Source: Treponema sp. (lineage in GTDB: Bacteria > Spirochaetota > Spirochaetia > Treponematales > Breznakiellaceae). From it: a stretch of 64,000 bases of DNA. Shown here in pieces: positions 1,911 to 22,693 of this stretch; positions within the stretch are counted from its first letter, which is position 1, and each line of letters opens with the position of its first letter. The stretch lies in the NCBI GenBank assembly GCA_031268385.1, contig JAIRXH010000036.1, positions 3,584 through 67,583 of the forward strand, written 5' to 3'. The notes under the pieces were generated by a model. The model ran no database searches. It saw nothing but the letters and a program-made list of their open reading frames with translations, and was not told where the DNA came from. A program made the position numbers and the translations under genes.

Positions 1911-2573
1911 ATGGACGATATCCGGCTGACAAGGCCCTGTCTGGAACGGTTGAGTACCGATGAACTCGTCAAGCTGGCGGATCATTACGCGATATATATT
2001 CCCCCGGATCTGGAACGGATCTTTGTCATAGAGGAACTGCTTGAGGCTGATTTTCCGGGAGACGGGCAGAGGGACGGTGAACGGTTCGGGGGACAGGCGG
2101 ATATACGCGAACCTGTGCCCCTTCCAAAGCAGTACAACATCACCTATCTGGAGTATCTTGTCAGGGATCCGCTGTGGATATTTGTCTTTTGGGAGATCAA
2201 AAGTCACGACAGGGATCTGTATGAAAAATCGCCTGATTTTGAGGGATATTTTCTCAAGGTACGGAATCTTGAAAGGGGGGAGCATATTTTTACCGTCGCC
2301 GTTGGCATGAACGACACCGCCTGGTACCTGGGTTTTCCCCCGGACAGCGGCCGCTGCCGCGTGGAACTCTGCGTACTGCGGGGCGATGGTGAAACCACGC
2401 TGGCGTTCTCCCGTCCCTTTACCCTTCCCGGACTCTTGGAGCCTCTCCCTTCCGGAGTGCCGGAAACCCTCGCGCGGCTTTCGGGCGCCGGGGATTTTCC
2501 GGTGATCCGCAACGCGGACCGCCTGTCAAGGCCCAGGGACAGGCGCGCTTTTCAAAATTCCCGGAACGATTAG
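1911..2573 (+). CDS. DUF4912-like protein (Rho-N/SAP-like N-terminus), GH57-associated
   Basis: An in-frame ATG at 1911 (MDDIRLTRPCLERLSTDELVKLADHYAIYIP) follows the RluA stop at 1876. The 1578 start in the track would overlap the RluA gene. The gene lies immediately upstream of the GH57 gene. Confidence 0.7.
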   Translation: MDDIRLTRPCLERLSTDELVKLADHYAIYIPPDLERIFVIEELLEADFPGDGQRDGERFGGQADIREPVPLPKQYNITYLEYLVRDPLWIFVFWEIKSHDRDLYEKSPDFEGYFLKVRNLERGEHIFTVAVGMNDTAWYLGFPPDSGRCRVELCVLRGDGETTLAFSRPFTLPGLLEPLPSGVPETLARLSGAGDFPVIRNADRLSRPRDRRAFQNSRND

Positions 2574-2582
2574 CCGGACAAT

Positions 2583-4157
2583 ATGGAAAAACGGAACGCT
2601 ATTTCGATAGTCCTCAACGCCCATCTGCCCTTTATACAGCATGACGAGGGTCCGTACTGGTCACGGGAAGAACAGATCTTTTTTGACGCTCTTTCCGAAA
2701 CCTATCTTCCCCTTCTCGATGTCCTCGCGCGTCTGGACAGGGATAATGTCCCCTTCAGGCTGGGAATATCCCTTTCCCCGGTGCTCTGTCATCTCTTTTC
2801 CGACGAGAAGCTCATAAAAAAGTACCTTGACTATACGAACAGGCAGATAGAATTCGGCTGGCAGGAAGAGGACAGGACAAAGGGGGAAGACGGGCTTCAC
2901 TCGCTGGCAAAATACTATGTGGATCTGGCGGGGGAAAGGCGGCTTTCCCTTATGGAGCGGCACGGGGGGGACATTCTCAAGTCGCTGGATCACTACCAGA
3001 GGAAGGGCAGGGTAGAGATCCTTGCCACCGCCGCTACCGGCGCGTTTCTGCCCTTCCTGTGTTCCTCCCCGGAGGCCGTCCAGGCCCAGCTTGAGGCGGG
3101 ACTTGCCTCGTACCGTCTCAATTTCGGCAAATATCCCCTGGGTTTCTGGCTTCCCGAACTTGGCTGGACGGCCGCGCTTGACGAACATTTGAGGGCCAAC
3201 AATCTGGGCTACACCATCGTGGAATCCCATTCCCTTGTTTTCGGGAATCCCCCGGCGGAAAAAGGGACTTTTTATCCGGCAAAGACCCCGGCGGGAATTT
3301 TCGTCCTGGGCAGGGATTTCAGCCCGGCCGGGAAATTCCGCGCCGCAAGCCCTCTCTACCGGGACAACGGCAAGGACGCGGGCTACGATCTGCCGGCCGG
3401 TATGGTGGAATCTTTTCTCTCCGCCAACGGGGAACGTTCAGGGACAGGGTACAAGTATTACGGCGGGCTTGACGGGAAGGACCAAAGGCTTTTTTACGAT
3501 CCCGATGCGGCGCGGAAGCAGGCGGCCGGCGACGCCCGCCGTTTTCTTGACGCGAGCGCCGCCCGGCTGGGCGCGGCCGCCGCGATGATGAAGGAAAGGC
3601 CGGTGAGCCTGTGCGTCTTTGACGCCGACGATCTCGGCCGCCTCTGGTACGAAGGGCCGGTTTTTATTGAAACCCTGTTCAGGGAAGGCGCGAAGCGGGA
3701 TGATCTGCAGTTCACAAATCCGGCTGAATTCCTCTACAGGCAGGAATCCTCCTTCCAGACCGTGACTCCCGAATTTTCATCGGGGGGGATCAACGGTTAC
3801 GCTCAAACCTGGCTTGACGCGTCAAACGACTGGATATACCGGCATCTCTTCAGGGCCGCCGAAAGAATGACGGAAATGGCGGAGCGCTTTTCGGACGATT
3901 CGGGACTCAGGGAACGGGCCCTTAACCAGGCGGCAAGAGAACTTCTGCTCGCGGAAGCCGCCGACTGGCCCAAAATGATGTACGAAGGCGATTCCGCGTT
4001 CGCCAGGGGCAGAATTGAGGAACATTTGAGAAATTTCACCACGATTTACGAAACGCTGGGAAGCAACTACATAAGCACCGAATGGCTGACCGGCCTTGAA
4101 AAACGGCACAGCATTTTTCCCGGCATCAATTACCGCATTTTCAGGAAGAAGCGCTAA
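2583..4157 (+). CDS. glycoside hydrolase family 57 alpha-glucan branching enzyme-like (DUF1957 type)
   Basis: 524 aa. The N-terminus ISIVLNAHLPFIQHDEGPYWSREEQIFFDALSETYLPLLDVL is typical of GH57 branching enzymes, and the ORF is long and clean. Confidence 0.85.
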   Translation: MEKRNAISIVLNAHLPFIQHDEGPYWSREEQIFFDALSETYLPLLDVLARLDRDNVPFRLGISLSPVLCHLFSDEKLIKKYLDYTNRQIEFGWQEEDRTKGEDGLHSLAKYYVDLAGERRLSLMERHGGDILKSLDHYQRKGRVEILATAATGAFLPFLCSSPEAVQAQLEAGLASYRLNFGKYPLGFWLPELGWTAALDEHLRANNLGYTIVESHSLVFGNPPAEKGTFYPAKTPAGIFVLGRDFSPAGKFRAASPLYRDNGKDAGYDLPAGMVESFLSANGERSGTGYKYYGGLDGKDQRLFYDPDAARKQAAGDARRFLDASAARLGAAAAMMKERPVSLCVFDADDLGRLWYEGPVFIETLFREGAKRDDLQFTNPAEFLYRQESSFQTVTPEFSSGGINGYAQTWLDASNDWIYRHLFRAAERMTEMAERFSDDSGLRERALNQAARELLLAEAADWPKMMYEGDSAFARGRIEEHLRNFTTIYETLGSNYISTEWLTGLEKRHSIFPGINYRIFRKKR

Positions 4158-4211: not shown

Positions 4212-5489
4212 TCAGAAATCAAGCCGCTGCATGGCGTCTATTTGCCGCTCGACTTCAAGCGCGCGGGTAAGGACGGCAAGGTTTTCACGGGCGGGCTCGA
4301 ATTTGGGGTTAAGCCTCAGCGCCTCGTTCCAGCAGGATTCCGCCTCGCTGTAGTTTCCCCCCGCGTAGGCGTCAAGGCCGGCAAGGTACAGTTCGTCGAC
4401 CTTCGCGGCAACGGCTCCCCTTCCCTGATCCCCCAGATCAAAACGGACCCCCACGCTGACCCGGTTAAGGGGCTGCAGCTGGGTCAACAGATCCAGCGTG
4501 TAATTCACGTCCACGGCGATGGATTTAAGGGTTATGGCGCTGCCAAAGGCCACCCGCACATTTCCGTGTTTCGCCAGAAAACCCGCCCGCATTGAAAGAA
4601 AATTCGTGACATTGACGGAAACACCGGTAGACCAGTAGGGTTTTTCGGACAACTGCGGATCCTGAAGGTTGAGCGGAACGGAAAAATCAAAGGCGAAGAG
4701 CAGCGGCCGCATGGGCTGATAGGACAGGGCGGCGGTCATAACCGTGGGAAGGGGATCGCTTTTGGCCGGCGGCCCCAGATTCCGTATCACAAAGGCCAGG
4801 GATGTATTCCGGTCCCGCGACTGGTACGGCTTCAGAAAGTCGAAACGGGTCAACACCCCCAGATCCCCCATAACCATGGCCGCCGACTGGGATTTCCCCG
4901 AACCGGCTATGATATTGTCCTCGTTGTCGGTGTAATCAGGCACAAAACGGAAGGCGCCCTTGAGGTTGACCCCCACCGAAACGCCCGAAAAGTAATAGCC
5001 CGACAAGAAATTGTAGGAGGCGTTGAGAATGGCGATCACCTCCGAGTAATACCCCTTGGACACCCGTTCGCCAAAGAAGTTGTATTCGGTAAAGGGGGTA
5101 AAAAGCCATTTTCCCCCCGCGGCAAAACCGAGGTTTTTGTAACGGGAAGCGAAGGCCGCCCCCTCTATCTTGGTGTCCGCTATCCAGTTGTTGTGAAAAA
5201 AGGCCAATTCCGTTTTTTTGAGCATGGAAGAACCGGCCGGATTGAACTCGATGAAGGAAATATCGTCGGCAACCGCGCTGAAAGACCCCGCCATGCCTTC
5301 GGAACGGCCCCCCATGGGTATATTCAGAACGGGGAAGGCCGTAAGGCCGGCATTGTCGTCGGGACCGTATATTTTGTCCAGATATTCGGAAATCGAGTAA
5401 TACCCGTCAGGATTGAAATTGGCGGCCCCGGCGGCGGCGGCAAGCGTGAAAACAATAAAACCGGAAAAGAGGAGCCGTTTTCTGTTCAT
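4212..5489 (-). CDS. UPF0164 / FadL-like outer-membrane beta-barrel protein with C-terminal TPR-like helix pair
   Basis: Signal peptide MNRKRLLFSGFIVFTLAAAAGA. The motif PMGGRSEGMAGSFSAVADDISFIEFNPAG is typical of the Treponema UPF0164 family. The body has alternating beta-strand-like sequence. The C-terminal ~70 aa (YLAGLDAYAGGNYSEAESCWNEALRLNPKFEPAREN) is TPR-like. Confidence 0.8.
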   Translation of the reverse strand: MNRKRLLFSGFIVFTLAAAAGAANFNPDGYYSISEYLDKIYGPDDNAGLTAFPVLNIPMGGRSEGMAGSFSAVADDISFIEFNPAGSSMLKKTELAFFHNNWIADTKIEGAAFASRYKNLGFAAGGKWLFTPFTEYNFFGERVSKGYYSEVIAILNASYNFLSGYYFSGVSVGVNLKGAFRFVPDYTDNEDNIIAGSGKSQSAAMVMGDLGVLTRFDFLKPYQSRDRNTSLAFVIRNLGPPAKSDPLPTVMTAALSYQPMRPLLFAFDFSVPLNLQDPQLSEKPYWSTGVSVNVTNFLSMRAGFLAKHGNVRVAFGSAITLKSIAVDVNYTLDLLTQLQPLNRVSVGVRFDLGDQGRGAVAAKVDELYLAGLDAYAGGNYSEAESCWNEALRLNPKFEPARENLAVLTRALEVERQIDAMQRLDF

Positions 5490-5572
5490 TTATCCTTACT
5501 ATACCCTATCTTACAATATATATCGGAAAAAATAATATTTCTATGATATTATAATATACTGTAGAAGGCTCT

Positions 5573-8500
5573 TTGAAACCGGAGTTTCGAAAGAAAGCCT
5601 TGGAATTAACGGGGAATTTCCGGGCCTTTGCTACAGGGATTTTCCGGGAATTCCGATATAGAGGACAGGTATACCTTGCAATGAATGCGCAGAGCCCTCC
5701 GGGGGGCGTCCGCCTCACGGGGCGGATTTTCGGGTTGTTGGCGGTCTGCTGGTCTCTGGCAGCGGCGGTTTCCCCGCTTTACGCGGGGGGAAGGATGGAT
5801 GGGGATCTGTCCCGCGCCGACCGCCTCATCGCGGAAAAACAGTACGACGAAGCCATAAGGGTCCTGTCCGAATACATCAGAAACAACCCCGATGACTTTG
5901 AAACCGCCCGGAAAAGGCTGAAGCGGATAGAGGCGTTCAGGGATGAATACAACGCTGTCGCCAGCGAGCTTTTGACGACGGTATCCTCGGATCCGGGAAA
6001 CGCCTCGAAGATCCTCTCCCTTATCCAGCGGCTTCAGAGCATAGAATCCCCCAACAACCCCAATGTTCAGGCCTTCATCGGCCGCATCCAGGCCATAGCC
6101 CTGTTCACCTACAACCGGAACAGGCTGGAGCAGATCCTTTCGGCCGGGCGCGAGGAACTGGCCAGGGCCAATTTTGAGGGGGCCCTTGCCCTCTACGCCG
6201 GGGGCATGGATATTTACCGCGATGAATTTTTCAGCGCCGGATACGGGGAGGAAACGGAAAACCGGGTGCGGGCGGGCATAGCGGATATAAACGCCGAAAC
6301 GGGTGGATTCCCCGCCATTGTCCGTTCCCTTGAACAGAACGCGGCGGAAATGGAGCAGTCGGGAACCGGAAACACGTCCCTTGTCCGTCTGGAAGAAATC
6401 TACGGCCGCCTTATCCCCGGACTCGACAATCTGACCCGTTCCCGTAATGTGCTGCTCGATGCCGGAAATTATTTTGACGAAGAACTTGCCCGGCTGCAGG
6501 CCGATAATCCCGAAATTGGGGACCGCTCCTTCCTTTCGTTCGCATCCCGTCTTGTTCACGGCCCTGCCCGCGCCGAATTTCCCGAAGGAATGCTCGGCGC
6601 GGTGGAAGGTTACTGGAACAGTGTAATGTCCCGCGCGGAAAGAGCGGCGCTGAATATTGCCGAACGGAATTACACGGCGGGCCTGACCGGTCTTTCAAAC
6701 GGGGAGTACGCCGCCGCCGCTTCCTCCTGTGAAAACGCCCGGCCGTATCTCGATTTTCTCCTTTCACTTTCCGGGAAATGGAACGAATTCATGCACGATT
6801 CGCCGTCGTTTACCCTTTTCGGCGTTTCCGTACCCAGGGAGAAATTCGGCGATTTTCTCATGTATCAGGCTTTGGACGACGCCCTTTCGTATTTTGTCGA
6901 CGGAGCGGATCTGGGCCGGCGTTTTGCCGGGGCGCCGGGCGGCGATTCCGGCGCGATCTCCCTGTGGCAGAGCGGTTCCCTCGATTCGGCGGAAGCGGAA
7001 CGGCGCGAAGGGCAGTACCGGGAGGGATTCACCGTTCTTTACACCGAGGCCGAAACGCTGATCCTGGAAATGGGCGGGCGTGAGGACGAATTCCGCGCGG
7101 AAATGGCCGCGGGCCCCGGTCCGGACGGGGAAAGTCCCGCCGGAAAGGATCCGCTTTCCCCCCTGGAGGAAGCCCGGAACTTTATCGTGAGCCTCCAGGC
7201 CCGCATAGGGGAAGAAGAATACGGCGCCGCGGTACGGCAGTACACCATAGCCAACGGGGAATTCGAAAGGCGGGTAAACGGGCGCCGGAGCGAAATGGAC
7301 CAGGGAATCCGCTTCATCGAGGGAACGACCGAAGACGGCCATGTTGTCTATTATCCGGCCGAAGGGCTTGCCATATTCGAGGGCATGAACGCGGCCGTGT
7401 CGGCGGACATCGAGGCCGGAGACATTCTCCTTGAAAGGTACGCCGCGGAGCGGGCCGACATACTGGGCAAAGGGGAAGTGTCCTCCCTTTACGCCTCCGC
7501 GCGGGAAATGGCGGCGTCCCTCGCTTCGCTTGGAAGCAGGGGGGAAAGCCTCATGTCCGCGGCCAGGGCCCAGTCCGACAGGGCCCAAACCTACAGGCAG
7601 GAAGGGGACCGGCTCTTCAGGGAAGCCCAGACCGCTTTGGCCCAAAACAACTTCGACACGGCGCGGGACAGGGTTCGCCAGTCCACCGAGCGGTACAATA
7701 TGTCCCTGGAACTGCAGGAATCCGCTTCCCTCAGGGCCGAATGGGGCAGGCTTGTCGCCCTGGGGAACGAGATCAACCGTGTGGAAAACGAATTCGTGAT
7801 ACGGGATGTCAGGAACTACGTGACCGGCGCCCGGACGAACTATTACGCGGGCAATTTTGAACAGGCCGAAGAACTCCTGGTACGGGCCCAGAACCGCTGG
7901 CGGCGCACCAATGTCGGCGACGACGAGGAAGTGCTCTACTGGCTCAGTCTGGTCCGTAACGCCATGTCGCTGCGTTCAGGCAGGATCATTCCCGCCACCG
8001 CTCCCCTTTACGCGGAGATGAGCCAGCTTTTAAGCGAGGCCAAAAAAAACTACGAAGAGGGCGTGCGTTACTTCAACTCGGGCCGGAGGGGAGACGGAAC
8101 GGTCAAATTTACCGAAGCCCGGCAGAAGACACGGGAAGTAAAGATCATGTTCCCGCTGAACGAGGACGCGGGACTTCTCGAACTGCGCATGGATCAGGTG
8201 GTGGACCCCCGAGCCTTTGAACAGTCCTTCGAGCAGCGCATGCGGGACGCGATAGCCGGGACCAGGCGGAAGTCGATGGAGGCTTTCGCCGATCTGCAGA
8301 ATCTCGCGAAGATCAACCCCCGGTATCCGGGCATGGCCGGCATCATTACCCAGGCGGAAATAGACATGGGCTTCAGGCCCCCGCCGCCCAATCCCGCGGA
8401 TCTTGCCCGGTCCGCCGAGCTTACCGCCGACGCGCGGAGGGTTATCGAGGGGAATCTTTCCGGTCAGTACGAAGCGTCTCTCGTCTGGCTCGATCAGGCG

Positions 8501-8749
8501 CTGCGGCTTAACCCCAACAACACGGAAGCCACCCGGCAAAAGGACATACTCCTTACCCGTATAAGCGGACGCGGGGTTGTCGTGTTTGACAGAAAAACCG
8601 AAGATGAATACCAGCGGGCCGTCAGGGAGTATCAGCAGGGTAATTACCTTGGGGCCTTCGCCAGAATAGAGCAGCTGCTTCAGGATCCCAGAAACCGGAA
8701 TTCCACCCTGATTCTGGAACTTCACCGGAGGCTCCAGTCCCTCTTATGA
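5573..8749 (+). CDS. large periplasmic TPR/helical-repeat protein
   Basis: 1058-aa ORF. The track start is TTG at 5573, preceded by GAAGG. An alternative start is ATG at 5681 (MNAQSPPGGVRLTGRIFGLLAVCWSLAAAVSPLYAGG, signal-like). TPR-like segments occur throughout, for example AEKQYDEAIRVLSEYIRNNPDD and YEASLVWLDQALRLNPNNTEA. The stop overlaps the next start (ATGA). Confidence 0.8.
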   Translation: MKPEFRKKALELTGNFRAFATGIFREFRYRGQVYLAMNAQSPPGGVRLTGRIFGLLAVCWSLAAAVSPLYAGGRMDGDLSRADRLIAEKQYDEAIRVLSEYIRNNPDDFETARKRLKRIEAFRDEYNAVASELLTTVSSDPGNASKILSLIQRLQSIESPNNPNVQAFIGRIQAIALFTYNRNRLEQILSAGREELARANFEGALALYAGGMDIYRDEFFSAGYGEETENRVRAGIADINAETGGFPAIVRSLEQNAAEMEQSGTGNTSLVRLEEIYGRLIPGLDNLTRSRNVLLDAGNYFDEELARLQADNPEIGDRSFLSFASRLVHGPARAEFPEGMLGAVEGYWNSVMSRAERAALNIAERNYTAGLTGLSNGEYAAAASSCENARPYLDFLLSLSGKWNEFMHDSPSFTLFGVSVPREKFGDFLMYQALDDALSYFVDGADLGRRFAGAPGGDSGAISLWQSGSLDSAEAERREGQYREGFTVLYTEAETLILEMGGREDEFRAEMAAGPGPDGESPAGKDPLSPLEEARNFIVSLQARIGEEEYGAAVRQYTIANGEFERRVNGRRSEMDQGIRFIEGTTEDGHVVYYPAEGLAIFEGMNAAVSADIEAGDILLERYAAERADILGKGEVSSLYASAREMAASLASLGSRGESLMSAARAQSDRAQTYRQEGDRLFREAQTALAQNNFDTARDRVRQSTERYNMSLELQESASLRAEWGRLVALGNEINRVENEFVIRDVRNYVTGARTNYYAGNFEQAEELLVRAQNRWRRTNVGDDEEVLYWLSLVRNAMSLRSGRIIPATAPLYAEMSQLLSEAKKNYEEGVRYFNSGRRGDGTVKFTEARQKTREVKIMFPLNEDAGLLELRMDQVVDPRAFEQSFEQRMRDAIAGTRRKSMEAFADLQNLAKINPRYPGMAGIITQAEIDMGFRPPPPNPADLARSAELTADARRVIEGNLSGQYEASLVWLDQALRLNPNNTEATRQKDILLTRISGRGVVVFDRKTEDEYQRAVREYQQGNYLGAFARIEQLLQDPRNRNSTLILELHRRLQSLL

Positions 8750-11700
8750 TTTTTTTAACACGCTTTGCACCGGGAAACCTTGTCTCTTCGAGGTTCAGGA
8801 CCCTTTTTCAGGTTCTCCTCCTTTTCATCGTATGCGCGTACGGGGAAGCGCAGACGGCTTTTTACTGGGAACAGCCGAACCGCTTTTCCCCCGGCGAGGG
8901 CCGTTTTCCAGTTTCCGGCTTTAACGGAGAGCTTTCCGTCATCGTCTGGCAGGAAACTTCGCCCAACAGCCGCGCCAATACTGTCGGCGAGTCGGAGATA
9001 CACGTCTCCCTCGGGGTAAAGTCCGCCGGGGAAGACTGGAAGATATACCGGAACGTGGGGGGCCCCTATTACTATTCGGGGGAAGAACCCGCAATCCTCA
9101 ATGTCAGCGTCGACAACCGGAACAGGATCATCATAGCCGCCGCGGCTTCCGTAACCGAAACGGAGATCCTCATATCGTCCGACAGGGGGGAAAGCTTTTC
9201 CCGCAGCAGGCTCGACAGCGGTTCGGAAAGTTCCATAGCGCCCCGCGTCGCCGTCCGCGCCGACGGGGGGTATCTGCTTTTTATCACCCGCGGATACGAA
9301 CAGTCGCTTTCACTCTACTATTCCCGTTCGGACGACGGGATCACCTGGAGCCCCTTCAGTCCCTTTGTGCAGGGTGGCTACGGGCTCAATCTCAACTTTC
9401 TTCCCACCCACGCCGTACTGGGCTCCACCGATTATGTGATCTTTCAATCCTTTGTCGGCGGCGCCGACGTAATCCCCGCCTTTCAGCTTTACCTGCAGAC
9501 CAGTACGGATAGGGGCCTTACCTGGAGCCCGCCCCGGCGCGTAACCGATTTTCGAGATCCCCTCATGAACACCGGTTCCGACCCGGATCGTTTCGACAAC
9601 CAGCGGCCCCATCTTTCGGTATACGGGAACAGCCTGTTCCTCGTGTGGGAACGGCGTTTCGGCACGGGGTCTCCCCAGATCTACGGGGCCCTTCTCAATT
9701 CCCGGGGAACGGCAAGCGATGTGGAACGGGTGAATACCGAAGAGGCGTACTGTAACAACCCGGTGGGCTTTGTGTACAGGGGAACCCGTACGGCGGTGTG
9801 GTTCGACAACCGCAGGGGGGGAAGCCGCGTCTTCCTTGGACAGCGGGATTCCCTCTCCTGGTCGAATTACGATCTTTCAGGCGGATCGGGGGACGCTTCT
9901 TTCGGAAGGCCCGTCATAGACGGGGACGATCTGCTGGTCCTCTGGCAGATCGTTATCCGGGACGCGGGGTACATCTACACGGTTCTTCCCGATACAACCG
10001 TTACACCGCCGCGTATTGCCGCGCTCAATTTTTCCCCCTCGCGCCGTACACGGGGAGACCGGGCGCGGGTTGCCTGGAGTCCGCCCTTCGATACTTCCGG
10101 TATTGAAGGCTACTCCTGGCTCTGGTCCAGGTCGCCCCTGGAGGAGCCGCTCCGGGAAGTTTTGCTTTATCCGGGGGCAAACGTTTCCCCGTCCATGGAT
10201 CTTGCCGCGGAGGAAGACGGTTCCTGGTATTTCAGCGTCATCGCCCTGGATTACGCGGGAAACTGGTCCCTTCCGTCCCGTGTTGAATTCATACGGGATA
10301 CCACCCCGCCTCCCCTGGTGTCCGTCATTCCTCCCGATCTGGACGAAAACGGGTACCTCGTGTCGAATACCTTTTCCGTGCTGTGGGACCCGCCGGACGC
10401 CCCGGACGTTGCCGGCTACACCTGGAATCTCGAATATATGGGAGGCGCGGATCGCGGCGAGGATTACGAAACCTTCGCCGCGTCCGCCGAAGAGCACGGA
10501 ACGGGAACCGTTCCCGCGGGCGCCGCGGCTCCCGGGAATCAGGTGGAGTATGTCAACCAGGACGACGGAACATGGCGTTTTACCGTCGCGGCCGTGGACG
10601 AGGTGGGAAATGTCGGGCCCCCGTCGAGTATTTTCTTCAGAACAGACAAATACATTCCCCATACCTACGTTACCTATGTGGATTCAGGCCAGGATGAACA
10701 GGGGCTTGTCTCCATACGTGTCATAGGCCGGGGCTTTTCCGTCGGGGGAAATGTGTACCGGATCTTCCTGGACCGGGACGGGGAAGCCCCCTACGACAGG
10801 GAATACACGCTTTCAAACGGGGATTTCCGCATTCTTTCCGACAGGGAAATCACGGGACTGCGGGCGGAAGACATGGAAGAGGGAATCTACAGACTGGGGA
10901 TCTTCCATCCGTCAAGGGGACTGTACGTCACTTCTCCCGCGATAACGGTGAACAAAACGGGAACGGTCAAATTCGGCGACTTCTCAAGTATCTGGGAGCC
11001 TTCCTGGCTCAGGCGGGAAACGCGCCGCGTTGTCGATCCGTCCCTGCTTCTCATTGTCGTTGTCTTCATATTCTGTCTCTTCGGCTTTGCCGCCTCCGTC
11101 AGGGGAATAGGAAACGCCGTCGCCGAAAGCGTCGCGATACGGGTGGAAGCGGCCGCGCTTATAACAGGAGATTTTATGCCTTCGGAAAAGAAAAAACACG
11201 CAGCAAGAATCAGGCGGAGGGGGGGAGGTCTGCGGCTCAAGCTGGCTTCTTTCACCATCGCGATAGTGCTTACCGTGGTCGCCATGGTGTCCCTGCCCTT
11301 GGCCTATGTGATGACCAATACCCAGCGGCAGACCCTGCTCCGGGGACTTTGGGACCGTTCTTCCGTTCTTCTTGAAGGACTGGCGTCAAGCGCCCGTGCG
11401 TACCTTCCGGCGAACAACATTCTGGAACTCGGTTTCCTCCCCGCCCAGACCGTGGCCATACCGGAAGCGCGCTATGTGACCATTACCGGCTACAACGCCC
11501 AGGCCTCGTCATACGGGGATCTGGTGTGGGCCACCAACGATCCTGAAATTCTCGCCAAAATAGATACCGCCGAACTGCAGCCGGGAATATCGCGTCTTGC
11601 CGATGTGCTGAGTCCCCGGCTTGAACAGATCAGCCGGGAACTGAACGAGAGGGCCCGCGCCGAGGTGGGAAGCCTTTCGCGGAGCATAGCCGAACTCAAC

Positions 11701-13371
11701 CAGGAAGGAGTTGCCCTCGCGTCCCGCAATGACGCCGAAAGCAGGCAGCGTTTTCAGGATATACAGGTAACTACAAGCCAGTTAACCGCGCGGTTTACCG
11801 AAGGACTTGCCTCGATAGCCCGCGACATCGGTTCGGAGCCCTCCTTCTCCACCGAGGAGCTTCCCCGCGACGGGGCTGGAACCTACATATTCTTCAAGCC
11901 CGTCATGTACCGGCAGGGGAACGAGGATGTCTACTTCAGGGGCCTTATCCGCCTTGAAGTGACCATAGATTCGATACTCGCCAAAATCGCCGAGGATCAG
12001 CGGGGTCTTGTCAGGCTCATTTTTATCATCGCCTTTATCGCCGTCGCCATAGGAACCATGGGCGCGCTGGTCCTTTCCACCCTTATCATCAGGCCCATAC
12101 GGAAACTGGTGCGGCATGTCGAGCAGATCAGGGACACCGACGACAAGACAAAACTCGCGGGGGTGGACATTCACATCAAGAGCAGGGACGAGATTGCCGT
12201 TCTGGGAAACACCATCAATGACATGACCCACGGTCTTGTCAAGGCGGCGCTGGCGGCTTCGGATCTGTCCATAGGAAAGGAAATACAGAAGAAGTTTATT
12301 CCCCTGGAAATGGACCGGGAAGGAAACAAACTCAGTTCAGGCTACAAGGACACCAAAAACGCCAGCTTCTTCGGCTACTACGAAGGGGCCAAGGGCGTAT
12401 CCGGGGACTACTTCGATTATCAGGATCTTGACGGCCGCTACTACGCGATCATCAAATGCGACGTGGCCGGCAAGGGAATACCGGCGGCCCTCATCATGAT
12501 ACAGGTGGCCACGATGTTCCTCAACTATTTCAAGGCCTGGAAACCCACCGCCAAAGGCATGCACATAGAGGAAGTGGTCTACCAGATCAACGACTTCATC
12601 GAAACCCTGGGCTTCAAGGGACGTTTCGCCGCCTTTACCCTCTGTCTCTTCGATTCCCAGACGGGGGTGGTGCGCTTCTGCAACGCCGGCGACAACATCA
12701 TACATCTCTTTGACGCCTCCGAGGGCCGTATCAAGACCCTTACCCTGCCGGAGACGCCCGCCACCGGGGTGCTTCCGAACTTCCTTGTGGAATCCAAGGG
12801 CGGTTATACCGTGCAGACCATGACCGTCGATCACGGCGACATTCTGTTCCTCTTTACCGACGGTATAGAAGAGGCAAAGCGGAAATTCAGGGACGGGGAT
12901 TTCAGGGAAATCATCTGTACCGAAGGCGGCGCCCCCAACGACACCCCGCACGAAAACCACGTGGTAGGGCAGGGCGATGAGGAAATGGGACCGGACCGGG
13001 TCCAGGCCATTATTAACGCCGTCATGAACAGGGATGTCTATACCCTGCACAAGTGGCACAACCCCGAAGGAAACACCGATCTTTCCTTCGATTTTTCAAA
13101 CTGCGAAGGCAAAGTCGAGGAAGTGATCATGGCGCTGGTGTCGGTGGAAAAGATGTTCCGCTGCTGCAAGGATCCCGGCGCCGGCGAGGATTCCCGCGTA
13201 CTTGTGGACAGGAAGGTGGACGCCTTCCTCAAGGAGCACTTCCTCCAGTACCGTACCTACTGTTCCTACACACGGGAAAACCCTGGCAACGACGCGTATA
13301 TGTATTATACTCACGTTATTGAAGATGATCAGTACGACGATCTTACCATTTTGGGGATCAAGAGAAAGTGA
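8746..13371 (+). CDS. multidomain membrane sensor phosphatase: BNR/sialidase-like propeller + 2 FN3-like + second periplasmic module + HAMP + SpoIIE/PP2C
   Basis: ATG at 8746 overlaps the upstream TGA. Asp-box motifs are SSDRGESFS, SRSDDGITWSP and TSTDRGLTWSP. FN3-like segments read ARVAWSPPFDTSGIEGYSWLW and FSVLWDPPDAPDVAGYTWNL. Hydrophobic spans lie at nt 11044-11103, 11242-11313 and 12016-12090. The HAMP-like segment is RPIRKLVRHVEQIRD...IAVLGNTINDMTHGL. PP2C motifs are GVSGDYFDY, FTDGIEEA and DDLTILG. Confidence 0.9.
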   Translation: MIFLTRFAPGNLVSSRFRTLFQVLLLFIVCAYGEAQTAFYWEQPNRFSPGEGRFPVSGFNGELSVIVWQETSPNSRANTVGESEIHVSLGVKSAGEDWKIYRNVGGPYYYSGEEPAILNVSVDNRNRIIIAAAASVTETEILISSDRGESFSRSRLDSGSESSIAPRVAVRADGGYLLFITRGYEQSLSLYYSRSDDGITWSPFSPFVQGGYGLNLNFLPTHAVLGSTDYVIFQSFVGGADVIPAFQLYLQTSTDRGLTWSPPRRVTDFRDPLMNTGSDPDRFDNQRPHLSVYGNSLFLVWERRFGTGSPQIYGALLNSRGTASDVERVNTEEAYCNNPVGFVYRGTRTAVWFDNRRGGSRVFLGQRDSLSWSNYDLSGGSGDASFGRPVIDGDDLLVLWQIVIRDAGYIYTVLPDTTVTPPRIAALNFSPSRRTRGDRARVAWSPPFDTSGIEGYSWLWSRSPLEEPLREVLLYPGANVSPSMDLAAEEDGSWYFSVIALDYAGNWSLPSRVEFIRDTTPPPLVSVIPPDLDENGYLVSNTFSVLWDPPDAPDVAGYTWNLEYMGGADRGEDYETFAASAEEHGTGTVPAGAAAPGNQVEYVNQDDGTWRFTVAAVDEVGNVGPPSSIFFRTDKYIPHTYVTYVDSGQDEQGLVSIRVIGRGFSVGGNVYRIFLDRDGEAPYDREYTLSNGDFRILSDREITGLRAEDMEEGIYRLGIFHPSRGLYVTSPAITVNKTGTVKFGDFSSIWEPSWLRRETRRVVDPSLLLIVVVFIFCLFGFAASVRGIGNAVAESVAIRVEAAALITGDFMPSEKKKHAARIRRRGGGLRLKLASFTIAIVLTVVAMVSLPLAYVMTNTQRQTLLRGLWDRSSVLLEGLASSARAYLPANNILELGFLPAQTVAIPEARYVTITGYNAQASSYGDLVWATNDPEILAKIDTAELQPGISRLADVLSPRLEQISRELNERARAEVGSLSRSIAELNQEGVALASRNDAESRQRFQDIQVTTSQLTARFTEGLASIARDIGSEPSFSTEELPRDGAGTYIFFKPVMYRQGNEDVYFRGLIRLEVTIDSILAKIAEDQRGLVRLIFIIAFIAVAIGTMGALVLSTLIIRPIRKLVRHVEQIRDTDDKTKLAGVDIHIKSRDEIAVLGNTINDMTHGLVKAALAASDLSIGKEIQKKFIPLEMDREGNKLSSGYKDTKNASFFGYYEGAKGVSGDYFDYQDLDGRYYAIIKCDVAGKGIPAALIMIQVATMFLNYFKAWKPTAKGMHIEEVVYQINDFIETLGFKGRFAAFTLCLFDSQTGVVRFCNAGDNIIHLFDASEGRIKTLTLPETPATGVLPNFLVESKGGYTVQTMTVDHGDILFLFTDGIEEAKRKFRDGDFREIICTEGGAPNDTPHENHVVGQGDEEMGPDRVQAIINAVMNRDVYTLHKWHNPEGNTDLSFDFSNCEGKVEEVIMALVSVEKMFRCCKDPGAGEDSRVLVDRKVDAFLKEHFLQYRTYCSYTRENPGNDAYMYYTHVIEDDQYDDLTILGIKRK

Positions 13372-13403
13372 ACAGGACTTCCGGTGTAACAGGGGGGTTA
13401 ACC

Positions 13404-13721
13404 ATGACATTCGGAGAACGGATGAAGGAAATTGTTGAACAGGGCATTTCGGTTTCAAAGGATCTTGCTGTAAAAGCGGGGGCAAAGGCCCAGGATCTGG
13501 GAGAGCGGGGCGTTCTCATGCTGGAAGTCAGGCAGCTTGAAGGCCAGGCCCAGAAACTTGTCGGCCGTCTGGGAGCCGAGGCGTACGAGGCCTTTGCCGA
13601 ACGGGGCGTCAAGACCCTGGCGGCGGACACCCACGCCGTCAGGATCCTGCTCGCGGAACTTGCCCAGATCCGCGAATCCATCGAAAAAAAGAACACGGAA
13701 CTCCAGTCCCGGAAAAAGTGA
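13404..13721 (+). CDS. small coiled-coil hypothetical protein (105 aa)
   Basis: ATG at 13404 is preceded by AGGGGGG at 13391-13397. The sequence MTFGERMKEIVEQGISVSKDLAVKAGAKAQDLGERG...ELAQIRESIEKKNTELQSRKK is helical and charged. The track start GTG at 13368 overlaps the upstream stop and is an alternative. Confidence 0.6.
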   Translation: MTFGERMKEIVEQGISVSKDLAVKAGAKAQDLGERGVLMLEVRQLEGQAQKLVGRLGAEAYEAFAERGVKTLAADTHAVRILLAELAQIRESIEKKNTELQSRKK

Positions 13722-14830
13722 ATTCAGGGGAAGTCCTCCCCGAAGCCGTCGTGGAACGTTTTGCCATTTACGGCGAACTGGAAACCGTCTGTCCTTTCGG
13801 TTCGGGGCACATCAACACAACCTTTGTTTCACGGTGGAACCAGGCCGGCCTTCGCGTGCGTTATCTGCATCAGCTGATAAACGATCGCGTTTTTCTCCGG
13901 CCCGGCGGGGTCATGGAGAACATAGACCGGGTCACGCGGCACATCGCGTCCATTCTCCGTGAAAAAGGAGAAGAGGATGTCAGCCGCAAAACCCTGACGG
14001 TGGTTCCGTCGCGGGACGGCCGGCTCTTTGTCCGCGATGACGGCGGCGGCTGGTGGCGGACATATTTGTTTATCGAGCGGACGCACACGCTGGACCTGGT
14101 TTCCACCTCCGGCGAGGCCCATTTTCTGGGGAAGGCCATCGGACGTTTTCAAAAACAGCTTGCGGACTTTGACGGAAAGCGGCTTGACGAAACCATCCCC
14201 GATTTTCACAACATGGAAAGCCGTTACCGCTCTTTCCGTAACGCGGTAAACAGGGACCCCCTTGACCGGGCCGGAACGGCCGGCGCCGAAATTGACTTCA
14301 TGCTTGAAAACGAGGAACGGGGCGCCGTTCTCCTCCGCGCCCTGCGTGAGGGGCGCATCCCCGAGCGCGTCTGCCACAACGACGCCAAGATAAACAACAT
14401 ACTCATTGACGACGGGGACAACAGGGCCCTGTGCGTCGTAGATCTTGACACCGTGATGCCCGGAACCTGTCTTTTTGATTCAGGCGATCTGATACGCACC
14501 GTCGCGGCGCGGGCAAAGGAAGACGAGCGGGATCTTTCGCGGGTTGAATTTGATTTCCCTTTTTTCGCGGCCCTTCTCGAAGGTTACCTTTCCGAGGCTT
14601 CCTCCTTCCTTACGACGGGGGAAAAAGAACTGCTTGCCGAATCGGGACGGAACATTACCCATATCATGGCCCTGCGTTTTCTTACCGACTACCTTGAGGG
14701 GGACACGTATTACCATACTTCACGGCCCGGTCATAACCTTGACAGGGCCAGAAACCAGATTGCCCTTGTCCGTTCCATGGACAGACACTGGGAGAGTATA
14801 ACGCGCTTCCTGCGGGAACGGGTGCTTTAG
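13718..14830 (+). CDS. APH-fold phosphotransferase, N-acetylhexosamine-1-kinase (NahK)-like
   Basis: GTG start overlaps the upstream TGA (GTGA). Motifs are FGSGHINTTF, HNDAKINNILID (Brenner-type HxDxxxxN) and VVDLDTVMPG (DxD). Confidence 0.85.
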   Translation: MNSGEVLPEAVVERFAIYGELETVCPFGSGHINTTFVSRWNQAGLRVRYLHQLINDRVFLRPGGVMENIDRVTRHIASILREKGEEDVSRKTLTVVPSRDGRLFVRDDGGGWWRTYLFIERTHTLDLVSTSGEAHFLGKAIGRFQKQLADFDGKRLDETIPDFHNMESRYRSFRNAVNRDPLDRAGTAGAEIDFMLENEERGAVLLRALREGRIPERVCHNDAKINNILIDDGDNRALCVVDLDTVMPGTCLFDSGDLIRTVAARAKEDERDLSRVEFDFPFFAALLEGYLSEASSFLTTGEKELLAESGRNITHIMALRFLTDYLEGDTYYHTSRPGHNLDRARNQIALVRSMDRHWESITRFLRERVL

Positions 14831-14877
14831 CCGCACTTGAAAAAACGGGGTTTTTATTGTAAAAGTGCTGAAGTGTT

Positions 14878-15342
14878 ATGACAAAGGAACCCTTTTACCG
14901 GGACGGACTTCGTTTTTCATGCCGCCGCTGTTCTTCCTGCTGCCGTTACGAGAGCGGTTTTGTTTTTCTCTCCGAAAAAGACGTATGTGTCCTGTCGGCG
15001 GCCCGCAAAATGGAGTATACTGATTTTGTAAAGACATGGTGCCGCTGGGTTCCTTCCGAAGGCGGCCGGGACCGTCTTTCACTAAGGGAAAAGACCGATT
15101 ATGATTGTATCTTCTGGAAGGACGGCTGTACGGTCTACGGGGCGCGGCCCCTGCAGTGCAGAACCTTTCCTTTCTGGTCTTCTGTTGTCGGTTCCCGCGA
15201 AGCGTGGAATATGGCAAAAACAGGCTGTCCGGGCATGGATTCAGGCGCGGCGCACAGCCGGGAAGAAATAGAAACCTGTCTTGCCATGAGGAGGGCGGAG
15301 CCGCTTGTCATGAGAATATCACCTGGCGTAAGGGGGTTGTAG
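14878..15342 (+). CDS. YkgJ-family (UPF0153) cysteine-cluster protein
   Basis: The sequence FSCRRCSSCCRYESGFVFL...DCIFWKDGCTVYGARPLQCRTFPFW matches the CxxCxxCC plus C-rich pattern of the family. Confidence 0.85.
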   Translation: MTKEPFYRDGLRFSCRRCSSCCRYESGFVFLSEKDVCVLSAARKMEYTDFVKTWCRWVPSEGGRDRLSLREKTDYDCIFWKDGCTVYGARPLQCRTFPFWSSVVGSREAWNMAKTGCPGMDSGAAHSREEIETCLAMRRAEPLVMRISPGVRGL

Positions 15343-16283
15343 TGCTGGTTCATTTTTGGGGCGTCCGGGGTTCCCTGCCGTCTCCGCAGCTTCCTTCGCA
15401 GATAAAAAGCAAGATTTCCGCCATTCTGGAGCGGCTTACCCCCGCGGATATAGAAAACACGGAGAACCGCGAACGCTTTCTGGCGGGACTGCCCCCCTGG
15501 CTCTTCGGTACGGTGGGCGGAAATACCCCCTGTGTCAGCCTCGGTTTCGACAATTCCCGCGAACTTGTCGTGTTTGACTGCGGATCGGGGATCCGGGAGC
15601 TGGGTATTGCCATTGGCAGGCAGAAACCGAAGCCGTCCCAGTACCGGGTGTTTTTTTCCCATTTTCACTGGGATCACCTTCAGGGGCTCCCTTTTTTCAA
15701 TCCCGCCTATGATCCTTCGATAACCATGGATTTTTATTCTCCCATGAAAGACCTGGAAGCCGCCCTTTACGGGCAGATGACTTTCCCGTATTTTCCCGTT
15801 CACATGGAATCGATGGGGTGCAAGAAGAATTTTCACTTCATGGACGGCAGGCTGGACATTGACGGCGTCACCATTTCCTGCAAAAAAATGAACCATCCCG
15901 GAGATTCCTATTCGTATATGGTCAACGACGGCAGACGCCGTTTCATTTACGCGACCGATACGGAGCTTTCGGCGGCCGATTTTATCAAAAACGACGAAAA
16001 CACCGAATTTTTCCAGAACGCCGACCTTATTGTCATAGACTGCCAGTACACGCTGGGGGAGGCTATCGAAAAATACAACTGGGGGCACAGCGCGTTCAGC
16101 TTGGCGGTCGATTTTGCCGCCAACTGGGGCATCAGGCACATGGTGCTGTTCCACCACGATCCTACCTACAACGACCGGAAACTTTTCAACATACTCCAGT
16201 CCGCGCGCTGGTATACCGAACGCATGAATATCAAGGGAATCGAGCTGTCGCTTGCCGTGGAAGGGTTGGAAATCAAACTGTAG
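15342..16283 (+). CDS. MBL-fold metallo-hydrolase
   Basis: The in-frame GTG at 15342 shares its G with the upstream TAG and is preceded by AAGGGGG. The N-terminus (M)LVHFWGVRGSLPSP is typical for this MBL subgroup. Other motifs are FFSHFHWDHLQGLPFF (HxHxDH) and VLFHHDP. Confidence 0.85.
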   Translation: MLVHFWGVRGSLPSPQLPSQIKSKISAILERLTPADIENTENRERFLAGLPPWLFGTVGGNTPCVSLGFDNSRELVVFDCGSGIRELGIAIGRQKPKPSQYRVFFSHFHWDHLQGLPFFNPAYDPSITMDFYSPMKDLEAALYGQMTFPYFPVHMESMGCKKNFHFMDGRLDIDGVTISCKKMNHPGDSYSYMVNDGRRRFIYATDTELSAADFIKNDENTEFFQNADLIVIDCQYTLGEAIEKYNWGHSAFSLAVDFAANWGIRHMVLFHHDPTYNDRKLFNILQSARWYTERMNIKGIELSLAVEGLEIKL

Positions 16284-16286
16284 TTT

Positions 16287-17489
16287 ATGAAAATGAACAA
16301 GCCCGGCAGGCCAAAGGTATCGGACGGCGGCAAGTACAATAGACATGACGACAGAATGTCACAAAACAATGGTACGCGAAAAAAAGACAAAGCGCCGAAA
16401 GCCGGAGCCGAACCGCGCAAACCGGGATTTTTCAGGAAATTTGTTTTTTTTCTGATTTTTCTTACCGGAACGGCGATTTTTTTCCTTGTGACAATCCTTG
16501 GAGGGCTCATATATTTTAACGGGGCGCCGACCGCCGCTCCCCGCTCCCTCCCCGACAATTCCCTTCGTGTGGAAGGGGATAGTGTCCTTTACCTTGAAGT
16601 GCGAAAGGGCGAAAGCGCCTGGTCGGTGGGCAGACGCCTTGAGGAGGCGGGGATCATACGGAACAGGTATTTTTGGCAGCTTGTTTCCCGCCTGGGCAGG
16701 GAGTACATCAAAAGCGGCGTCTACCGCCTGGACATTCCCCTGGGACAGCTGGAAATATACCGGATTCTGGTTGAAGGCGCCCAGATGCTGAGCCGGGTCA
16801 CCTTTCCCGAGGGGGCGACGCTGAAAAAATACGCCCGTATCCTTGAAGAGGCCGGAATATGCGGCCAGGCGGAATTCCTTGCCGCCGCCTCCGATCCCGC
16901 CGTCAGGGCCGAATATCATGTCCCCGGCGAAACCATGGAAGGGTATCTGTACCCCGACACCTACTTTTTTCCCCTGAACTATCCGGCCGCCATGGCGGTA
17001 CGGACCATGGCCGGCACCTTTTTCGGCCGGCTTGAGGAAATTGACCCGGACGCGCTGGAACTGTCCGCCGCCGAACTTGAGCGCAGGGTGATCGTCGCCT
17101 CCATTGTGGAACGGGAATACCGTGTCGACGAGGAGGCGCCTCTCATGGCGGGGGTGTTCTACAACCGGCTTGAAACAGGCATGGCGCTCCAGTCCTGCGC
17201 CACCGTGGAGTATGTGATCACCGAAATACAGGGAAGGCCCCATCCGGAGGTACTGTACACCAAGGATACGGAGATACGCGATCCCTACAACACCTACCTG
17301 ACGCCGGGACTTCCCCCCGGTCCCATTTCGGCGCCGGGCAGGGTGGCCCTCGACGCGGCCTTTCACCCTGCCGAAAGCGATTATCTCTATTTTCGCCTGG
17401 TCGATCCCCAGGCCGGCCGGCACTATTTTGCCCGCACGCTGGACGACCATATCCGCGCGGGAGTGCTGTATGTCAAGGGAAGGGGCTAG
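16287..17489 (+). CDS. mltG: endolytic murein transglycosylase MltG (YceG-like)
   Basis: Basic N-terminus plus a TM segment (FFLIFLTGTAIFFLVTILGG). YceG motifs are EGYLYPDTYFF, ASIVEREY, LQSCATVEY, YNTYLTPGLPPGPISAPG and YLYF. Confidence 0.9.
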   Translation: MKMNKPGRPKVSDGGKYNRHDDRMSQNNGTRKKDKAPKAGAEPRKPGFFRKFVFFLIFLTGTAIFFLVTILGGLIYFNGAPTAAPRSLPDNSLRVEGDSVLYLEVRKGESAWSVGRRLEEAGIIRNRYFWQLVSRLGREYIKSGVYRLDIPLGQLEIYRILVEGAQMLSRVTFPEGATLKKYARILEEAGICGQAEFLAAASDPAVRAEYHVPGETMEGYLYPDTYFFPLNYPAAMAVRTMAGTFFGRLEEIDPDALELSAAELERRVIVASIVEREYRVDEEAPLMAGVFYNRLETGMALQSCATVEYVITEIQGRPHPEVLYTKDTEIRDPYNTYLTPGLPPGPISAPGRVALDAAFHPAESDYLYFRLVDPQAGRHYFARTLDDHIRAGVLYVKGRG

Positions 17490-19381: not shown

Positions 19382-19384
19382 GGA

Positions 19385-21139: not shown

Positions 21140-21143
21140 AAAC

Positions 21144-21163
21144 GCGGGCCTTGGGAGGCCCGC
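21144..21163 (+). promoter_or_regulatory. GC-rich hairpin between rpoD and the Zn-ribbon gene (no U-tract)
   Basis: GCGGGCC-ttggga-GGCCCGC is a perfect 7-bp stem 5 nt after the rpoD stop. It is followed by AGGAG and ATG at 21177. It is not a canonical terminator. Confidence 0.3.
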
Positions 21164-21176
21164 TACAGGAGCACAC

Positions 21177-22019: not shown

Positions 22020-22023
22020 TCAG

Positions 22024-22590: not shown

Positions 22591-22604
22591 TTTTTTTATT
22601 CAAA

Positions 22605-22632
22605 GGCGGGTTTAATGCCCCGCCGTATTTTT
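22605..22632 (+). terminator. intrinsic terminator after rnpB
   Basis: GGCGGG-tttaatgc-CCCGCC stem-loop followed by GTATTTTT. Confidence 0.6.
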
Positions 22633-22693
22633 CAGGTCTCTTTTCGGGTTTGGGATGTTGAATCCGGAATTGCCGGCGCGCTGTTCAACATAA

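Follow-up and report, generated by a model that had tools for sequence, protein, structure and literature searches.

A probable envelope-signalling gene module conserved across spirochaetes, with a recently attached NahK-like kinase gene in Treponema

Introduction

Phosphatases of the PPM family that are linked to a HAMP domain act as dimers controlled by the linker (PMC12143880), and RsbU of Chlamydia trachomatis is a transmembrane protein of this HAMP-PP2C type (PMC4552016). At the other side of the envelope, UPF0164 paralogues of Treponema pallidum have been modelled as FadL-like outer-membrane proteins (OMPs), some of which carry a periplasmic tail of tetratricopeptide repeats (TPR), and the tails of these OMPs have been proposed as docks for periplasmic partners (PMC8407342). 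Here we examine a locus in which genes for both kinds of protein are neighbours. It lies in a 64,000-nt stretch of DNA from a Treponema sp. of the Breznakiellaceae (GCA_031268385.1, contig JAIRXH010000036.1, positions 3,584 to 67,583), which we call the window. The locus comprises a divergent OMP gene and four genes on the + strand, which encode a large helical protein of the TP0855 family, a giant sensor phosphatase, a small helical protein and a homologue of N-acetylhexosamine-1-kinase (NahK).

The family of each part is already known (NahK, PPM/PP2C with HAMP, BNR propeller, TP_0855 and UPF0164). The conserved association of a TP0855-family protein with a giant sensor phosphatase and a FadL-like OMP gene seems to be undescribed. 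In the literature we found, each of the T. pallidum proteins is considered on its own, whether as a candidate OMP, as an antigen or as an entry in a proteome, and the three are not given a function as a unit. The literature searched gives no function for TP0855 or TP0854, and we found in it no work on PP2C/HAMP proteins in Treponema. Research on TP0855 and the FadL-like OMPs has treated them as antigens and vaccine candidates for syphilis, with no cellular role assigned, and linking them to a PP2C protein offers a testable hypothesis for envelope sensing in spirochaetes.

A preliminary description, made by a model from the sequence alone, had proposed that the four + strand genes form one module for sensing and salvage of host glycans or amino sugars. 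We consider it likely instead that the OMP, the helical protein and the sensor belong to an ancient, conserved envelope-signalling module to which a salvage kinase gene was recently attached. No new glycan pathway is indicated, as the kinase appears to be an ordinary NahK that has recently landed behind a signalling operon.

Results

Three genes of the locus are conserved across spirochaetes

The locus is laid out as follows, with positions counted from the first nucleotide of the window.

4212–5489, − strand: UPF0164/FadL-like OMP gene, divergent from the operon
5490–5680: divergent intergenic and promoter region of 191 bp, 63% AT, with an AT-rich core at 5490–5572 (83 bp, 76% AT)
5681–8749, + strand: TP_0855-family helical gene (gene 1), 1022 aa from ATG 5681; the open reading frame (ORF) is open from TTG 5573
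8746–8749, + strand: start/stop overlap ATGA of gene 1 and the sensor gene, read from the sequence
8746–13371, + strand: sensor phosphatase gene (gene 2), 1541 aa, stop codon at 13369–13371
13372–13403, + strand: 32-nt spacer between the sensor gene and the small gene, with a G-rich Shine–Dalgarno (SD) sequence aGGGGGGt at 13391–13398 (GGGGGG at 13392–13397), followed by ATG 13404
13404–13721, + strand: small helical protein gene (gene 3), 105 aa
13718–13721, + strand: start/stop overlap GTGA of the small gene and the NahK gene, read from the sequence
13718–14830, + strand: NahK homologue (gene 4), APH fold

A metagenome search anchored on the 3′ end of the sensor gene returned 80 termite-gut loci, from which each count below uses only those long enough to tell. 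A TP0855-like gene is located directly upstream of the sensor gene in 44 of 45 informative loci, and a UPF0164 gene is divergent in all 41 that could be scored. Gene 1 and the sensor gene overlap in 37/40 loci (ATGA in 32/40, TAATG in 5/40), a recurrence that goes beyond chance, and, because the start of one lies on the stop of the other, both proteins are probably made together.

The sensor family extends well beyond these genomes. An exhaustive HMMER search with sensor residues 1–1200 yielded 272 clusters (50% identity) at E<1e-30, most of which are 1500–1600 aa long and match end to end at identities down to 30%; more than 120 full-length orthologues were collected. Among 30 distant representatives that were looked up, the named members are Spirochaeta cellobiosiphila, Treponemataceae, Treponema sp. 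and metagenome-assembled genomes (MAGs) of Spirochaetia. We retrieved five distant loci, including that of S. cellobiosiphila, in which the sensor is 30–40% identical to that of the window. All five carry a TP0855-like gene immediately upstream, three have the gene overlap (S. cellobiosiphila, L166 and L167), and four have the divergent UPF0164 gene, which is missing beside the pair in L166.

The same genes occur in T. pallidum, where supplements to proteome papers list TP0856 (UPF0164), TP0855 (hypothetical, 1127 aa) and TP0854 (SpoIIE family protein phosphatase), the latter two detected by mass spectrometry. TP0854 is a protein of 1533 aa and 173 kDa with predicted transmembrane segments at 753–775, 816–838, 858–877 and 1085–1107; those of the window sensor, at residues 759–790, 828–858 and 1084–1116, fall at matching positions. 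The N-terminal 399 residues of TP0854 are collinear with the window sensor (28% identity, E=6e-47) and share its Asp-boxes, and an N-terminal 399-residue fragment of TP0855 matches the alignment of the gene 1 family with an hhalign probability of 97.9 (E=3.8e-13). Judged by homology and gene order, the core module is spirochaete-wide, occurring in free-living Spirochaeta as well as in termite-gut treponemes, and has been retained in the 1.1-Mb genome of T. pallidum. Synteny of all four + strand genes, as the preliminary description would have it, holds only in part: throughout Spirochaetia genes 1 and 2 stay together with the divergent OMP gene, synteny of the small gene is largely confined to Treponema in the loci compared, and the NahK gene is not part of the conserved arrangement.

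In one of the distant loci, L166 from a bioreactor metagenome, a STAS protein and two SpoIIE phosphatases are encoded at 13416–17328, about 2 kb past the sensor gene and on the opposite strand. It is possible that these genes are a partner-switching set located near the module in one distant lineage.

Architecture of the three core proteins

The UPF0164 protein matches Pfam UPF0164 over 277 residues (E=8.5e-55), begins with a signal-like sequence and has a C-terminal TPR_2 match at residues 366–396; an NCBIfam match to PorV/PorQ falls under the cutoff. The product of 4212–5489 is thus predicted to be a UPF0164/FadL-like (PorV-like) outer-membrane barrel with a periplasmic TPR tail.

Precomputed Pfam annotation assigns the gene 1 protein (P0121) the domains PF27421 (TP_0855_helical), PF27427 (TP_0855_C) and TPR_14, and the two TP_0855 domains are found on all listed homologues as well; it is from TP_0855 that Pfam takes the name of this helical family. 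TPR matches in gene 1 were also obtained in a Pfam scan of the window ORFs. In the AlphaFold2 model (predicted local distance difference test score, pLDDT, 85) the protein consists, after its signal peptide, entirely of helices of up to 57 residues, which agrees with its earlier description as a periplasmic helical scaffold. A Foldseek comparison with the PDB returned only generic TPR scaffolds, at TM-scores <0.2.

The sensor phosphatase has the following parts, all encoded on the + strand.

8788–8850: signal/anchor
8863–9990: BNR beta-propeller (residues ~40–415)
10003–10950: three Ig-like sandwiches (residues ~420–735)
11041–11109: first transmembrane segment, followed by a basic cytoplasmic loop
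11245–11316: second transmembrane segment
11353–12000: second periplasmic alpha/beta domain (residues ~870–1085)
12007–12081: third transmembrane segment
12073–12237: HAMP domain (Pfam E=1.1e-8)
12394–13368: PP2C/SpoIIE domain (Pfam SpoIIE E=1.1e-25)

The loop between the first and second transmembrane segments is strongly basic and is therefore assigned to the cytoplasm by the positive-inside rule. For the propeller, an all-beta AlphaFold2 model with pLDDT 80–93 over residues 40–415 was obtained. The sequence contains the Asp-boxes SSDRGESF (144) and STDRGLTW (253) and the variant SDDGITW, and matches Pfam BNR_2 and BNR under their cutoffs. The closest Foldseek matches are GH145 BT3686 (TMt 0.65), GH33 sialidases and PL24/42 lyases, with the ectodomain of the BT4663 sensor as a weaker match. 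The preliminary assignment of a sialidase-like propeller to a PP2C sensor is borne out by this model and these matches; 'sialidase-like' describes the modelled fold and carries no enzymatic claim.

The metal-binding motifs of the PP2C domain, GDYFD (1220), DVAGKG (1239), FTDGI (1370) and DDLTI (1531), are kept in 29–30 of 30 orthologues, and the domain is, by its motifs, catalytically intact. The TDG and DDLT motifs are separated by ~160 residues (window 12868–13335, sensor ~1375–1530), a distance that exceeds the one typical of RsbU-type phosphatases by roughly 100 residues. Cys and His are abundant in the insert (PHENH, CEG, RCCK, YCSY), which is nearly invariant across orthologues.

Gene starts, junctions and selection

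The four genes have the geometry of an operon, in that they share a strand and are joined by stop/start overlaps or by a very short gap with an SD sequence. The junctions listed above were read directly and agree with the preliminary description, which also had the OMP gene correctly as divergent. It gave the intervening AT-rich region as 83 bp; this stretch is indeed AT-rich, and the full region measures 191 bp from ATG 5681. We rejected TTG 5573 as the start of gene 1, since the protein read from ATG 5681 begins with a signal peptide, which can be aligned with N-termini of ~30 residues in the homologues, and ATG 5681 is on these grounds most likely the start. An alternative start of the small gene at GTG 13368, which would overlap the sensor stop codon as GTGA (13368–13371), had also been put forward. 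It is unsupported because homology of the small protein begins at the ATG in 76 related loci, with its own GGAGG-type SD sequence and gaps from the sensor gene down to 1–10 nt. GTG 13718 is a plausible start for the NahK gene, as it lies 14 residues before the FAIYGE motif, the same distance as the ATG starts of orthologues.

Scans for transcription signals rested on consensus matches. Promoter-like hexamers for the minus-strand gene occur at 5577–5548 and 5543–5515. Terminator-like sites number 29 where 23 are expected, which is chance level, and none separates the genes.

The closest relatives of all genes are in termite-gut Treponema/Breznakiellaceae genomes and MAGs, the nearest being MAG Gx481_bin162 (L001) with 84–94% protein identity. 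Between the window and L001 the synonymous substitution rate (dS) is 0.27–0.38, and its ratio to the nonsynonymous rate (dN/dS) is 0.09–0.27 for every gene, which indicates purifying selection.

The small helical protein

The 105-aa product of gene 3 is a cytoplasmic helical (coiled-coil) protein with neither a transmembrane segment nor a signal peptide. Searches of Pfam, NCBIfam and the PDB (profile search) gave nothing beyond noise, and the candidate assignment as a STAS domain was rejected on the same result. In an alignment of 74 unique homologues the N-terminal half is highly conserved, with the motif KAGAKAQDLGERG, and position 18 is Ser or Thr in every sequence. The gene is located directly 3′ of the sensor gene in 76 of 79 informative termite-gut loci, after a gap with a median of 19 nt, and in these relatives it always has an ATG start and a GGAGG-type SD sequence. 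A homologue was also detected in a distant Treponema locus from a MAG (L165; hmmsearch E=4e-19).

What follows the sensor gene or the small gene varies. In Treponema primitia (L170) the small gene persists at 15944–16327, displaced 3.3 kb downstream by an amino-acid ABC transporter (SBP_bac_3, permease and ATPase) and a DDAH/ADI-like gene at 12606–15943. In Leadbettera azotonutricia a Wzi-like gene follows the small gene, and L082 has DUF1848 at the same 3′ end. As these three carry different insertions, the 3′ end of the operon has repeatedly acquired unrelated genes. Distant loci that are without the small gene have unrelated secreted proteins, DZR or DUF192 downstream of the sensor.

Several further features were noted around the small gene. 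Its homologues in L082, L124, L131, L141, L142 and L170 are 119–127 aa long and have an internal duplication of ~21 residues, which covers an A-K-A-G-x-K-x-Q-x-x-G-x-x-G repeat. The gene most commonly found after the small gene encodes a phosphotransferase system (PTS) EIIA-2 protein (PtsN-like, 148 aa), which occurs within three genes downstream in 22/45 loci (for example L094 and about 20 others). The 250–750 nt that lie between the two genes, always more than 250 nt, suggest that it is transcribed separately; in about half of the 22 loci the next gene encodes a GH5-family protein of ~620 aa. In L129 (~2085–3195) an MltG-like gene begins 89 nt after the small gene, and its product is 28% identical to MltG of the window.

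Outside Treponema, the sensor gene of L163 and L164 is followed by conserved secreted proteins of 176 and 177 aa (12616–13146 and 13752–14285, respectively; 32% identical to each other), and downstream of it are also proteins of 300 and 327 aa (27% identical), a DZR zinc-ribbon protein and DUF192. These may be lineage-specific accessory factors that replace the small helical protein.

Identity and placement of the NahK homologue

A resemblance of the gene 4 product to N-acetylhexosamine-1-kinase had been noticed from its motifs and extends to the full length. A phmmer search of the PDB with the 370-aa protein matched 4OCU, 4WH1 and 4OCJ over residues 5–359 (E=2e-77 to 4e-77), and Pfam APH is matched at E=3e-10. 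In the HMMER alignment with NahK of Bifidobacterium longum the motifs correspond (GHINTT/GHINTT, HNDAKINNIL/HNDTKLNNIL and VVDLDT/IIDLDT). Gene 4 encodes a genuine NahK homologue, predicted by this similarity to phosphorylate N-acetylglucosamine (GlcNAc) or N-acetylgalactosamine (GalNAc) at C1 for salvage.

The usual genomic context of treponemal NahK genes is a different one. A NahK-anchored search of 185,579 species genomes gave 13 treponeme loci and then Bacteroidota at ~40% identity. The four-gene arrangement is present in only one of the 13, L001. In 8 of the other 12 the NahK gene is followed by that of an ABC sugar-binding protein, with two permease genes next where the contig continues, and in five loci a DUF5107 protein also belongs to the cluster. 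The DUF5107 protein may be a glycan-processing partner of NahK in treponemes that carry this cluster. Its full form (NahK, SBP_bac_1, two permeases and a ~700-aa DUF5107 protein) is seen in L002 at 11169–16408 and also in L006, L008, L009 and L010. The cluster of binding protein, permeases and DUF5107 protein is absent from the window.

Behind the signalling operon, NahK genes are restricted to close relatives of the window organism. None was found within up to 10 kb downstream in 45 other informative termite-gut loci (0/45), nor after the small gene or sensor gene in the five distant spirochaete loci, T. primitia or T. pallidum. In L168 and L169, which hold the next-closest sensor orthologues (79–80% identity), a NahK gene follows the small gene at a distance of 18 nt, starts with TTG and has AAAGAGG as its SD sequence, whereas L001 has the GTGA overlap of the window. 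The 3′ neighbour of NahK is a CxxC protein gene in the window and L001, MatE followed by CxxC-MBL-MltG-DnaG-RpoD in L168, and a GH127-like gene in L169. By this distribution the attachment marks a shallow sub-clade of the window organism, L001, L168 and L169 (at least 79% sensor identity) and, because it is limited to these four known lineages, it is not a general feature of the module.

The dN/dS of NahK between the window and L001 is 0.23, so the relocated gene is a working one. The window NahK is 68–69% identical to those of L168 and L169 and 69–71% identical to those of much more distant treponemes; for DnaG the corresponding identities are 75% and 49%. The comparison suggests that NahK changed faster after its relocation. 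Horizontal transfer of NahK was considered and dropped, as GC content is unremarkable and the closest relatives are treponemal. Exact-sequence lookups returned no record for the window NahK or for the sensor of Breznakiella homolactica.

Other features of the window

The 47-nt spacer between NahK and the CxxCxxCC gene (14831–14877) contains an inverted repeat, GCACTT at 14833–14838 and AAGTGC at 14863–14868, with an inner A6C-GGG-GT5 hairpin and an overlapping promoter-like site on the minus strand. NahK stands at the head of a co-directional run (13718–29306) that continues with CxxCxxCC, a hydrolase of the metallo-beta-lactamase (MBL) fold (RNase Z-like), MltG, DnaG, RpoD, a Zn-ribbon protein, the RNase P RNA (22024–22594), a TPR protein, MreB, MreC, MreD, PBP2 and RodA. 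Further away, at 49983–52958, a 991-aa ORF matches the N- and C-terminal GreA/GreB domains over no more than its final ~155 residues, and its product is, by domain content, a GreA with a very long N-terminal extension.

Discussion

A possible mode of action

In the explanation that we favour, the FadL-like OMP, the ~1000-aa periplasmic helical protein and the ~1540-aa inner-membrane sensor would work together across the envelope. A cue arising in the periplasm or at the outer membrane, perhaps read with assistance from the helical protein and the OMP's TPR tail, would change the conformation of the HAMP/coiled-coil linker. The linker would then switch a dimeric PP2C domain, which would dephosphorylate a cytoplasmic phosphoprotein of the partner-switching type. 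The small protein of Treponema could act as an accessory factor or a regulator or, more speculatively, as a substrate through its invariant Ser/Thr18. The ancestral context of NahK in treponemes would be the sugar-uptake locus with a binding protein, two permeases and DUF5107, from which the gene would have been relocated to the 3′ end of the operon in a recent common ancestor of the window organism and its three known relatives. There it is probably co-transcribed with the signalling operon and possibly translationally coupled to it. Leadbettera azotonutricia, T. primitia and Breznakiella homolactica are cultivable relatives in which these proposals can be tested.

A number of observations weigh against this explanation. 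The junction of the small gene with NahK is kept in four lineages even though the genes downstream of NahK have changed, and its survival might be owed to selection for co-expression instead of neutral hitch-hiking. The BNR propeller and the likeness to Bacteroides hybrid two-component system (HTCS) glycan sensors keep a glycan signal in play, and glycan sensing by the propeller is possible on the strength of the structural models. No STAS/RsbW-type partner gene is present among the scanned ORFs of the window, and a search of public sequencing runs with window 8000–15500 gave no match. The small gene is missing beside the sensor gene in S. cellobiosiphila, L163, L166, L167 and T. pallidum, and for this reason the small protein is not an obligatory part of the core. 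The homologies, architecture, synteny pattern, junction geometry and purifying selection are shown by the data; a physical complex, the nature of the signal, the substrate of the phosphatase and co-transcription are what we infer.

Other explanations of the locus

The reading of all four genes as one amino-sugar or host-glycan module, in which the propeller senses a sugar, PP2C tunes metabolism and NahK salvages the sugar sensed, is unlikely in our judgement. It draws on the resemblance of the propeller and Ig-like domains to glycan-active enzymes and to the BT4663 ectodomain, on the fact that NahK is a real enzyme under selection, on the persistence of its junction with the small gene and on the start/stop overlap, which suggests coupled expression. 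Yet the sensor module is kept in organisms without NahK nearby: the kinase gene is absent from this position in the 45 other termite-gut loci, the five distant loci, T. primitia and T. pallidum, and unrelated metabolic genes occupy the same spot in other lineages. The conserved partner of NahK elsewhere is the ABC transporter/DUF5107 cluster, and the window has no transporter, GH112, GalT, GalE or GlmU gene. NahK might instead belong with the cell-wall and housekeeping block downstream, as an AmgK-like anomeric kinase that supplies GlcNAc-1-phosphate for UDP-GlcNAc and hence for peptidoglycan, its contact with the sensor operon being incidental. GlcNAc-1-phosphate is the substrate of the GlmU uridylyltransferase, the co-directional run of the window is long and reaches RodA, and NahK adjoins CxxC-MBL-MltG-DnaG in the window, L001 and L168 (there with MatE between) and, divergently, in L002, L008 and L009. 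In those last three, however, the block is transcribed away from NahK; a GH127-like gene follows NahK in L169; L006, L010 and L013 have no such block nearby; and no MurU-like gene was seen. The protein is also far closer to NahK (E=2e-77) than to other PDB entries, a comparison outside which AmgK stands, and we hold this assignment to be improbable.

Two further explanations concern the core itself. It could be chiefly a device for trans-envelope uptake and not for signalling, with a barrel that imports a nutrient, hydrophobic or scarce in some other way, a helical protein that ferries or docks it and a PP2C protein that does no more than tune the uptake or serves as a scaffold, its enzymatic output being secondary. 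FadL-like OMPs import hydrophobic compounds and their TPR tails are proposed docks (PMC8407342), the window UPF0164 protein has such a tail, and T. pallidum, whose genome is minimal and which is auxotrophic for nutrients, keeps and expresses the locus. Against this, strict conservation of the HAMP domain and of every PP2C catalytic motif points to genuine signalling as the output, the module encodes no inner-membrane permease and the UPF0164 gene is missing beside the pair in L166; we find the proposal doubtful. We regard it as very improbable that the tight packing reflects genome compaction only, with four independent genes and no module. Four-base gene overlaps are common in bacteria, and the promoter and terminator scans were uninformative, but genes 1 and 2 remain neighbours, in most cases overlapping, all the way from the treponemes of termites to Spirochaeta and T. 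pallidum, and the small gene is in place in 76/79 loci. The envelope-signalling module with a recently attached kinase can also be extended into a bolder proposal. The OMP (through its TPR tail), the helical protein and the sensor would form a physical, spirochaete-only complex that reports the state of the outer membrane or periplasm (lipid, glycan or cargo flux) to a cytoplasmic Ser/Thr phospho-switch, with the small protein as its direct phospho-substrate and, in the sub-clade, co-option of the switch for amino-sugar salvage through NahK. To this extension, taken whole, we give little credence at present.

Comparison with known systems

Like the HTCS sensors of Bacteroides, exemplified by BT4663, the window sensor is modelled with a periplasmic ectodomain of a propeller and Ig-like (Y_Y_Y-type) domains (Foldseek E ~3e-10), and one of its orthologues has a faint Y_Y_Y Pfam match. 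The TM-scores are low (~0.1), however, and the output domain is PP2C rather than a histidine kinase, receiver and AraC domain. The window sensor also has a single BNR-type propeller and is encoded outside any polysaccharide utilization locus context.

NahK of B. longum (LnpB), which acts in the galacto-N-biose/lacto-N-biose (GNB/LNB) pathway, is homologous to the window protein over its full length (E=2e-77), with GHINTT, HNDxKxNN and DLDT kept, and most treponeme NahK genes resemble the bifidobacterial gene in adjoining an ABC sugar transporter (PMC8106489). The window gene differs in being detached from a transporter and placed at the end of a signalling operon. GH112, GalT, GalE and the GL-BP transporter of the GNB/LNB cluster are absent from the window, and the NahK genes of its relatives adjoin only the binding protein, two permeases and DUF5107.

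With phosphatases of the RsbU/SpoIIE type the sensor shares a PP2C domain with all metal-binding motifs and a HAMP domain between the membrane and the phosphatase, and by analogy the linker-controlled dimer mechanism would be expected to apply (PMC12143880; PMC4552016). In comparison with sensors like RsbU of C. trachomatis, its periplasmic part is far larger (~1050 residues, with three transmembrane helices). It differs from the type further in the conserved insertion of ~100 residues inside PP2C and in its genomic setting, where the gene is obligately adjoined by that of a 1000-aa periplasmic partner and the window has no STAS/RsbW genes.

The closest counterpart is the TP0856-TP0855-TP0854 locus of T. 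pallidum. There the next gene, TP0853, encodes a MinD/ParA-family protein, and neither the small helical gene nor NahK is present; in both loci the same three gene families stand in the same order, and the two sensors are alike in size and in the positions of their transmembrane segments.

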